From: Escherichia phage phiWec188
Reading direction: 5' to 3' (one strand)
DNA: 64,000 bases
Sequence record: LC739537.1
Positions within the stretch are counted from its first letter, which is position 1. Each line of letters opens with the position of its first letter. The notes under the pieces were generated by a model, which was not told the DNA's origin, did no database searches, and saw only the letters and a list, made by a program, of their open reading frames with translations. The translations under genes and the position numbers were made by a program. Of the stretch, positions 3,495-41,726 are shown one piece after another.

Positions 3495-3992
3495 ATGGTA
3501 CAGACAATTATAGATCGGACTGGTATTGATGAATGTTACCAAACTGGGCTTGTGAAGCCTAACGAGTTCCGACAGATTTGCGTGAATCATATTGAGAAAG
3601 AAATTGCACTAACTTTGGAGAACCTTACCCTCCGAGACAAGCTGTCAATGTTTGTGGCTTGGTGTAAAGGTGAAGATTGGTTATTGGCCCATTTTCAAGA
3701 ACTTTCTGATAGTCAAGAAGGCTTATATGAATGTATAATAGGAATAGCTGGCTCCAATCCTGAACTTCTCCATTTGGAAGAAGAAGAGGCGAAGTTACTG
3801 TTCTTAAGCAACATGTTCAATCGTAAAGCATTGCTTGTTCGTGAGTGTAGTGATCTTTTAAATCATCCACTGGCGATCACAAACGAAATACTGGTTGACA
3901 AAGAGACATTACGTGCGATAGACTATCTGCGCAAGTATGTCAACGGCGGGAAAGCAGTTCTTAAAACATTAACAGAGGAGGAAGCAGAATGA
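3495..3992 (+). CDS. hypothetical protein
   Basis: 165 aa ORF; RBS-like aaagggaggg upstream; ATGA overlap with next gene. Confidence 0.5.
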   Translation: MVQTIIDRTGIDECYQTGLVKPNEFRQICVNHIEKEIALTLENLTLRDKLSMFVAWCKGEDWLLAHFQELSDSQEGLYECIIGIAGSNPELLHLEEEEAKLLFLSNMFNRKALLVRECSDLLNHPLAITNEILVDKETLRAIDYLRKYVNGGKAVLKTLTEEEAE

Positions 3993-4675
3993 CTACAATT
4001 ATCGCAACCAAAAACAAGATCCTTAGCGACGGTAAAGTAACTTTCGGTGGTCGTGTAGATTCAACCAATTTCAAGAAAGTACGTAAGATTGGGGATTATC
4101 TCGTAGGTGGCGCAGGGCGTTTAACTTCGGTTTTAGCTTTCTTCCAGTGGTTCGAACAGAACCTGCAATGTGAAGCGGCGCGTGAGGCAGTGCCTGGGTT
4201 GATGATCAGTTCTAACCCTGATCGTGAAGATGAAGAGTTTATTGCTCTCGTTGTTCACCCAGACGGACGTATTTTCCTGCATGAAGGTAATGATCCTACC
4301 CGTGCATACCCAATCGACGAAGAATACTACGCAGTAGGCAGTGGTTCCGATTTTGCGCTCGCAGCACTGGATGGTGGTGCTTCTCCAGAAGCTGCTATGG
4401 AGGTTGCCAAGAAGCGTGACGCATACTCTGGTGGCGAAACATTCGTTGAAGAATTAGACGAGATCATCGAACTGACTGACGAAGATCTCGAAAACTTCAC
4501 CAAACAAGAACTGATCAACCTGCTTAAGTTTGGCGATCCTGCTGGTGAAGAAACTCCTCGTGACGTGGCAGGTGACGAGACGGCAGGAGAAGTTGTAGTA
4601 GAAAAAGACTTGACTTCAAAACCGGAAAATATTAATCTCGTAAATGTAGCGGATTTCGAGAATCCCGCTTCTTAA
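3989..4675 (+). CDS. HslV/proteasome-like Ntn-hydrolase peptidase with acidic C-terminal extension
   Basis: 228 aa; N-terminal MTTII (Thr nucleophile after Met), KKVRK, GGAG, AVGSGSDFALAAL match HslV pattern; acidic tail about 70 aa. Confidence 0.55.
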   Translation: MTTIIATKNKILSDGKVTFGGRVDSTNFKKVRKIGDYLVGGAGRLTSVLAFFQWFEQNLQCEAAREAVPGLMISSNPDREDEEFIALVVHPDGRIFLHEGNDPTRAYPIDEEYYAVGSGSDFALAALDGGASPEAAMEVAKKRDAYSGGETFVEELDEIIELTDEDLENFTKQELINLLKFGDPAGEETPRDVAGDETAGEVVVEKDLTSKPENINLVNVADFENPAS

Positions 4676-4680
4676 TAAAA

Positions 4681-4702
4681 CTGCCCCTTCGGGGGCATTT
4701 CT
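4681..4702 (+). terminator. intrinsic terminator
   Basis: gccccTTCGggggc hairpin followed by atttctt, right after the stop at 4675. Confidence 0.6.
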
Positions 4703-4720
4703 TACGCAGAGGAGATTACT

Positions 4721-5158
4721 ATGTTGAACGTTCCTGTTAAATTCGTCGATAGCTGTGTTAATGCTTACCAACAAACTTGTAAACGTGCCTCAAACTGTTT
4801 GCAGTCTTTGATTCAAACGCGGTACGTGATCCAAAAGAAAAGAAAGTGGTTTGGTAAGGATTCTTATAGTGTTAATGCGTTCGGGGAGTATCAACTCCAG
4901 TATGACGATAACATGCAACACATCTTAGAGTTTTTACTGATAAAAGATAAAATCTCCCCTGCGGATTACCAGTTACTTAAATTCTACGATCAGAGTTTGT
5001 CTATTGAGGAAGTTATTCAAGATATCCTTTCTCGTAAGACAGATAAGAACACTGTTGGTATTACAAACTTAGAGATGCAATTGCTCAATGAGATCTTTTT
5101 GTTTGTGGAAGATGAGTCTGTAACTAAGGAGGAGCTTTTAAATGGCTTTAAGCTATGA
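4721..5158 (+). CDS. hypothetical protein
   Basis: 145 aa ORF; gaggag RBS upstream. Confidence 0.5.
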   Translation: MLNVPVKFVDSCVNAYQQTCKRASNCLQSLIQTRYVIQKKRKWFGKDSYSVNAFGEYQLQYDDNMQHILEFLLIKDKISPADYQLLKFYDQSLSIEEVIQDILSRKTDKNTVGITNLEMQLLNEIFLFVEDESVTKEELLNGFKL

Positions 5159-5650
5159 TCGTCCAGAGTCCGATTACTATCCGACTCCGCAAAAAGCGAT
5201 TAACTCGTTATTTAGCATTATTGATTTTAAAAATTTGAAAGAGGAAGGATTTACATTTGCAGAACCGTGTAGAGGACAAGCAGCGGCTATTTACCGTCAC
5301 TTTCCTGAAGGTTCTCAGTATTGTGAGCTTGAAGAAGGTAAAGATTATTTTAGTCACGTATGGGAAAATCGTCCCGACATTATAATCACGAATCCTCCAT
5401 TCAAGCTGGCATTAGAGTTCTTGGAAAAGAGCTTGAAAGAAGCAGACGTGTCAGTCTACCTGCTTCGCCTGGGATTCCTTGAGTCAAAGAAACGTCGAGC
5501 GTTTCATCAAGAAAACCCCCTACGAATTTGATTGTACTCTCCGAACGTCCTTCGTTCGTAGCAGGTGGAACAGATAAGACAGCGTATGCTTGGTACGTAT
5601 ACGATCCAAAACAAATTTTGGGTCTAACTCAACCATTTTATTTCGTTTAA
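5142..5650 (+). CDS. putative DNA N6-adenine methyltransferase, interrupted by an apparent -1 frameshift near 5512-5520
   Basis: YYPTP and IIITNPPF motifs; ORF stops at 5531 but the -1 frame continues (LIVLSERPSFVAGGTDKTAYAWYVYD) to stop at 5650; shift falls in an A4C5 run. Confidence 0.4.
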
Positions 5651-5660
5651 GGAGCACACT

Positions 5661-5897
5661 ATGGCTAAATTTACTATGACCGTTTCTATTGATTTTGATG
5701 ATGAGGACGGAGGCATTAACTTAGGTATTGCTCAGAGCCTGGAAGGTGATTTGAACCCGACACAAGCAGCTATGGCGGTATTCTTTAAAGATACCATAAC
5801 AGTTACAGCAACACATTCTGCAAATCAAACTGTAGATTACGGTAGCATGGTTCAAGCCTTGGTTGATGCTCAAAACGGTGAAGATTGGGATGATTAA
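5661..5897 (+). CDS. hypothetical protein
   Basis: 78 aa ORF; aaggag RBS upstream. Confidence 0.5.
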   Translation: MAKFTMTVSIDFDDEDGGINLGIAQSLEGDLNPTQAAMAVFFKDTITVTATHSANQTVDYGSMVQALVDAQNGEDWDD

Positions 5898-6100
5898 TGG
5901 CTTATAATTATTATTGCGTTTACGCAAATGAAGCAAAGAAAGGCGACACTGGCACTAACGTCTATGCAGAATCAGAAACACATGCAAAAGAAATTGGTGC
6001 GATCCTTCTGTCACGTTGGACAGGTGGTAACTATTCTGCTGTGGATTTGTTCGCAGAAATGGATGATACCATCCAAGAAGATACTATCACCACAACCTGA
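5897..6100 (+). CDS. hypothetical protein
   Basis: 67 aa ORF; ATGA-type overlap with upstream gene. Confidence 0.45.
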   Translation: MAYNYYCVYANEAKKGDTGTNVYAESETHAKEIGAILLSRWTGGNYSAVDLFAEMDDTIQEDTITTT

Positions 6101-41463: not shown

Positions 41464-41649
41464 TTATTTGACTATGTGACGATCATTATATTCAGTGTAA
41501 AACTCGCAACCATCGTCACGACTATCAAGTTTAACAATGTAACCAGTTTGATAACGTTCAATAGATACCATTGCATAAAACTTACCATTCAGGATATTTC
41601 TAACCAGATCGCCTTTTACCAATTCTTTCGTTTTCTTGTAAGTAGTCAT
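41464..41649 (-). CDS. hypothetical protein
   Basis: ORF 41464..41700; ATG 41649 downstream of hairpin. Confidence 0.5.
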   Translation of the reverse strand: MTTYKKTKELVKGDLVRNILNGKFYAMVSIERYQTGYIVKLDSRDDGCEFYTEYNDRHIVK

Positions 41650-41669
41650 GATGTTTTCTCTTCTGTTAG

Positions 41670-41726
41670 GCGGGGCGCTTGTCGCCCCTATGTGATACAT
41701 CTTATCAGGTTGATTCAGCTTGTCAA
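41670..41726 (-). promoter_or_regulatory. promoter plus 5' hairpin cassette (stem variant ggggcg/cgcccc)
   Basis: TTGACA, spacer, TGATAAGAT, then ggggcgACAAGcgcccc hairpin. Confidence 0.5.

Follow-up and report, generated by a model that had tools for sequence, protein, structure and literature searches.

At issue at this locus was whether a methyltransferase-like gene of Escherichia phage phiWec188, broken into two reading frames within a short homopolymer context, is a pseudogene, an intact gene with a base-call error, or a gene whose full-length product is regulated by slippage. These three options had been left side by side by a sequence-only reading of the window, i.e., the whole stretch of 64,000 nucleotides of the phiWec188 record (LC739537.1; genome size 149,831 bp) that was analysed. 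The first two remain; the slippage-regulated methyltransferase was unsupported by the single ORFs of relatives, the RNA fold and the heptamer class. What the locus shows is a commonplace homopolymer indel in a gene of a known, biochemically uncharacterised phage family; it is not a new system, nor is it a site of recoding.

The upstream ORF (5142–5531; plus strand, as are all parts of the split gene) starts with an ATG located 8 nt downstream of a Shine-Dalgarno-like AAGGAGG (5127–5133) recognised by sequence inspection. It ends in ...AFHQENPLRI and the premature TGA at 5529–5531, in agreement with the end originally read for the ORF carrying IIITNPPF. Its 129 residues comprise the N-terminal three quarters of a methyltransferase-like protein (residues 1–126) followed by the out-of-frame residues LRI. 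Two recognisable motifs are included: a motif I-like SAM-binding loop, FAEPCRGQAAAIY (5256–5294; residues 39–51, with strand 39–41 in the AlphaFold model), and motif IV, IIIT-NPPF (5379–5402; residues 80–87, with strand 80–83 in the model), containing the putative catalytic (D/N)PP(Y/F) loop after strand beta-4. This truncated form is already in GenBank as a 'hypothetical protein', since the phiWec188 entry BDU13251.1 (129 aa), which falls in the 90% protein cluster of the phiWec190 protein, is identical to ORF 5142–5531.

The frame is lost in gaaaaccccc, found at exactly 5511–5520, where the join had been placed, through a single missing base inside the A4C5 run (5512–5520; A4 at 5512–5515, C5 at 5516–5520), which is read in the zero frame as GA[A AAC CCC] CTA. 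The aligned sequences show a C, rather than an A, to be missing (C6 to C5). The −1 frame, expected to continue to 5650, was stop-free from 5483 to the TAA at 5648–5650, reading ...SRKPPTNLIVLSERPSFVAGGTDKTAYAWYVYDPKQILGLTQPFYFV, and from 5516 to 5650 it encodes the C-terminal remnant PPTNLIVLSERPSFVAGGTDKTAYAWYVYDPKQILGLTQPFYFV, corresponding to residues 126–169 of the intact protein. The remnant is nucleotide-identical to phiWec190 and holds the invariant residues R136, P137 and F139 together with the predicted strands 129–132, 149–154 and 166–168. ORF 5142–5531 is identical to the phiWec190 protein BDU13652.1 as far as the missing C, and adding one C back gave a product of 169 aa, the length foreseen for the fused protein, that was 100% identical to BDU13652.1. 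The suspicion that the downstream frame encodes a genuine C-terminus was upheld: base for base it is as in the intact gene of relatives, it carries residues that are invariant or near-invariant across 70 family members, and this frame-matched agreement, as read in the sequence, is far beyond chance. The TGA overlaps a TTG (5528–5530) that is the formal start of a 40-aa remnant ORF, and the resulting TTGA stop/start overlap (5528–5531) is probably accidental.

Megablast of positions 4700–6100 against GenBank phages retrieved 70 Stephanstirmvirinae records (Phapecoctavirus-like myoviruses), with phiWec190 as the best match (LC739539.1; 99.9% identity), and each close relative aligned over 1402 bases vs. 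1401 in phiWec188. The site itself was compared in 12 relatives, namely phiWec190, PsgM04F, phiWec179, nieznany and eight IMG/VR contigs. All 12 have an intact 510-nt ORF encoding 169 aa with a lone terminal stop, and none of these 12 ends at the position of 5531. The annotation of each of the four named phages has a single CDS of 510 nt here. In phiWec190 (LC739539.1, 15431–15940) it is a single ORF with an uninterrupted C run and 100% nucleotide identity bar the missing C; orthologues in phiWec179, phiWec181, phiWec186 and Pseudomonas phage PsgM04F (WYA84417.1, 'DNA methyltransferase') are likewise single 510-nt ORFs, in contrast to the split gene of phiWec188, as is gp51 of Phapecoctavirus nieznany ('putative DNA methyltransferase'), with approximately 76% nucleotide identity. 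The gene order is common to phiWec188 and these orthologues: an HslV-like peptidase gene, a 145-aa ORF, the methyltransferase-like gene and two small ORFs. The first of these, a 228-aa ORF at 3989–4675 two genes upstream, is annotated as 'peptidase HslV family' in PsgM04F, and its metagenomic orthologue has a faint precomputed match to the Pfam Proteasome family. PsgM04F (OR584014.1) was reported on Pseudomonas coronafaciens pv. garcae and shares 99% identity with these E. coli phages across 1.4 kb of this region, an unusual host for so close a relative of E. coli phages.

The peptide around the site is kept as N/H-P-P-T/N among the 12 relatives. Its Pro-Pro is written CC(A/T) CC(A/T), with an interrupted C run, in 11 of them and CCC CCT only in phiWec190, indicating that the C6 tract arose recently, by synonymous change, in the phiWec188/phiWec190 lineage. 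An A-to-C change from CCA CCT to CCC CCT, leaving Pro-Pro unchanged, would have made it. IMG/VR viral contigs contained neither the exact C5 allele nor the C6 allele, and JGI metagenome contigs likewise lacked the exact C5 allele; an exact-protein search with the 129-aa product gave no match. A nieznany-like metagenomic contig (ENA ERZ17292900 k87_3490150, 19.5 kb) has the orthologue at 1283–1791 split into ORFs of 80 and 96 aa through the loss of another base, around codon 75 (GGGAAAA to GGGAAA), which indicates that occasional gene breaks, or assembly slips, occur elsewhere at other positions.

The repaired 169-aa protein matched PHROG 799, 'DNA methyltransferase', over residues 4–157 and thus across the break (E = 9.5e-55, 187.6 bits); this name, in PHROG as in the databases, is an annotation and not an experimental function. 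A database search gave at least 260 homologues, nearly all of 165–180 aa, and Pfam domains were absent from all of them. Conservation was read from an alignment of 70 homologues, in which T15, E41, P42, C43, Y69, N84, P85, P86, F93, R118, R136, P137 and F139 were invariant and G45, G143, D145, Y149, W151 and D155 nearly so. The family consensus of motif I is FxEPCRGxGAIY (residues 39–51), with the second glycine replaced by Ala (GQA) in phiWec188, and this motif precedes motif IV by about 40 residues with no domain between them. The gene had been likened to Dam methyltransferases, a label that did not hold: the repaired protein reached no Pfam or NCBIfam family and had no match to Dam (PF05869) or MethyltransfD12 (PF02086) at E ≤ 1. 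Membership in the Dam type was rejected on these absent Pfam matches and the lack of anything meaningful in NCBIfam. Only the motif IV region gave sub-threshold Pfam matches (EcoRI_methylase, MTS), and PF05869 was touched by one of the 70 family members, weakly (E = 0.0011). Searching PDB sequences with the single protein produced chance matches only (MglB, eS10), and with the family profile only weak motif IV matches, to DpnA and PacII.

AlphaFold2 with the family alignment gave a confident model with a pLDDT of 91 and a pTM of 0.87, with strands at 39–41, 80–83, 103–109, 129–132, 149–154 and 166–168, showing the class I (Rossmann-like, seven-stranded) SAM-methyltransferase fold. Foldseek ranked M.TaqI at the top (E = 2.5e-4). 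In the fold comparison, 141–158 residues aligned to catalytic domains alone; the whole protein has 169 aa and a target-recognition domain is absent. On this model, the intact protein is a minimal stand-alone gamma-class (NPPY/F) amino-methyltransferase domain of the class I, SAM-dependent type. Fold and motif together favour adenine N6 as the putative methylation target, and adenine N6 in phage DNA is the substrate that we infer as most likely for the intact protein, whose activity would guard the phage against host restriction. As far as the literature search went, there was no published activity or substrate test for any family member, and the literature on these phages that was looked through, including PMC12695924, did not mention the methyltransferase gene.

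Both phiWec188 and phiWec190 come from urban sewage in Japan, were isolated on E. coli TK001 and have been proposed as a single species, 'Wecvirus wec188'; they infected the same panel strains (PMC12695924), indicating that the gene is dispensable on that panel. Their genomes were assembled by Velvet 1.2.10, a short-read assembler (PMC12548472). All 64 kb of the window were aligned to phiWec190 (LC739539.1). There were no substitutions and two differences, namely the missing C and a deletion of approximately 800 bp. Within the first 21,080 bases, the sole difference was one gap at 5521, against position about 15561 of LC739539.1: AAAACCCCC-T in phiWec188 vs. AAAACCCCCCT in phiWec190. Across the 64 kb, phiWec190 has only three C/G runs of at least 6 nt, the C6 tract among them, and of all homopolymers of the window (241 runs of at least 5 nt, 42 of at least 6 nt) only this tract differed between the two phages. 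Over this stretch, the differences between phiWec188 and phiWec190 all belong to the two fastest classes of mutation; the record lengths imply approximately 57 bp more of difference beyond the 64 kb examined.

The second difference has its junction at 41645–41697 (LC739539.1 about 129122–129922) and takes out three small early CDSs, BDU13841–BDU13843. At both deletion ends phiWec190 has the repeat GTCATGAT(G/T)TTTTCTCT(C)TTCTGTT beside different GC-rich hairpins, and short direct repeats within the array of small ORFs appear to have recombined to produce the deletion. Separately, 20933–21080 matches both ends of LC739539.1, as the phiWec190 record starts and finishes with the same exact 148 bp; from its sequence, this repeat is an assembly overlap or a terminal-repeat fragment in a linear record.

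We consider it probable, with moderate confidence, that the C5 run reflects a genuine and very recent loss of one C by replication slippage, which created a null allele (pseudogene). In this scenario, the C6 tract would lose one C by slippage to give the C5 of phiWec188, and translation from the ATG at 5142 would halt at the TGA at 5529–5531. The 129-aa product would retain the SAM loop and the NPPF loop but lose residues 127–169, including the last three predicted strands and R136-P137-x-F139. Because these strands and the invariant R-P-x-F are gone, the product is probably misfolded or inactive. The competing explanation, which we regard as possible although rather improbable, is that the phage truly has C6 and an intact 169-aa gene, one C having been dropped from the deposited phiWec188 consensus. 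The two records differ here by one base in the length of a G/C homopolymer, the classic site of indel miscalls. Since the 64 kb show not one substitution relative to phiWec190, a true point difference would be rare a priori; moreover, the protein becomes 100% identical to that of phiWec190 once the base is restored, all 12 relatives have an unbroken gene, and the C5 allele had no independent sighting in IMG/VR or JGI metagenome contigs. Against such an error, the other 240 homopolymers of at least 5 nt were equal in both assemblies, so the assemblies are not generally unreliable in homopolymers, and general miscalling was ruled out with one differing run in 241. Furthermore, assembly by Velvet implies a short-read platform and depth at which runs of 5–6 nt are usually called correctly. 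The deletion of approximately 800 bp also marks the two isolates as really different genotypes. We therefore infer that the missing C is a property of the phage and not only of its assembly. In either case, an ordinary mutation or a sequencing slip is at hand, and not a regulatory device.

That the A4C5 tract serves −1 ribosomal frameshifting, transcriptional slippage or phase variation, and thereby yields a regulated or on/off full-length methyltransferase, is very unlikely. The zero-frame A_AAC_CCC at 5513–5519 formally fits X_XXY_YYZ, and a −1 tandem slip would yield ...QENPPTNL..., exactly the wild-type protein, but this outcome is automatic for any homopolymer deletion. The tract length does differ between two sister isolates; however, five or six C are well short of the tract lengths at which RNA polymerase slippage or phase variation becomes appreciable. 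No long mononucleotide tract kept in relatives was found, the run of 5–6 nt being unique to the phiWec188/phiWec190 pair and the polymorphism confined to two isolates. The split layout is not conserved, as all 12 relatives have one ORF and 11 have a run interrupted by CCA or CCT codons, and the sequence on either side of the site does not differ from that in the intact phiWec190 gene, which argues that nothing was shaped for frameshifting. A hairpin of −20.4 kcal/mol was predicted 5 nt downstream of the site, but it was no better than shuffled sequence (z = −1.2, with 24 of 200 shuffles as good) and the same sequence is present in the intact gene of phiWec190. Sharma et al. (2014; PMC4066793) reported weaker average shifting for CCN codons in the A site, and their list of efficient E. 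coli motifs does not contain A_AAC_CCC. A programmed frameshift was rejected on conservation, downstream fold and heptamer class.

Two further ideas deserve even less weight. It is highly improbable that the newly arisen C6 tract acts as a mutational switch in this lineage, with C5/C6 mixed stocks turning a minimal orphan adenine methyltransferase on and off, or that low −1 slippage at A_AAC_CCC restores the protein, with a methylation-heterogeneous phage population as the result; if true, C5/C6 heterogeneity would be a bet-hedge against methylation-dependent and methylation-sensitive host restriction. We give hardly any credence to the rebuilding of an active enzyme from the 129-aa product and a separately translated 40-aa fragment that would start at TTG 5528 by termination-reinitiation. 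The TTGA overlap would suit it, as would the position of the break, which in the model lies in the loop between helix 119–124 and strand 129–132; yet the frame change itself produces this overlap, in a sequence that otherwise equals the intact gene, there is no Shine-Dalgarno before 5528, and a split-protein layout occurred in none of the 12 relatives. Complementation of a seven-stranded sheet by a 40-residue piece is also unlikely without selection.

Returning to the null allele and its main competitor, the finding has a modest but real practical value. Behind the deposited 129-aa 'hypothetical protein' lies a frameshifted methyltransferase-like gene, and the annotation needs either a pseudogene flag or a correction. 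Should the deletion be real, phiWec188 and phiWec190 constitute a near ready-made knockout/wild-type pair for a widespread, uncharacterised family of approximately 170 aa. The finding bears on neither recoding nor gene regulation.

Compared with known systems, the site shares a formal X_XXY_YYZ heptamer and a −1 downstream ORF with programmed −1 sites such as dnaX (A_AAA_AAG) and the G/GT of phage tail chaperones, but unlike these its two-ORF layout is not conserved, a stimulatory structure is unsupported and its heptamer falls outside the efficient class. With phase-variable methyltransferases (type III mod genes) and homopolymer pseudogenes it has in common that a one-base change of a run within a methyltransferase coding sequence switches the frame; in contrast to mod-type tracts, that of phiWec188 is short (5–6 nt), of recent synonymous origin and absent from relatives, with no sign of selection for variability. 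As for the protein itself, the rRNA and tRNA m6A enzymes METTL5, PH1948, Erm, KsgA and TrmM had a fold score for the phage protein equal to that of DNA enzymes, and since they are equally close, the fold does not single out DNA as the substrate. From the gamma-class N6-adenine DNA methyltransferases M.TaqI, MmeI, M.BseCI and type I HsdM, the phage protein differs by its size of 169 aa without a target-recognition domain and by a sequence likeness limited to motif IV, whereas the order of motif I followed by motif IV and the N-P-P-F loop are common to them all.
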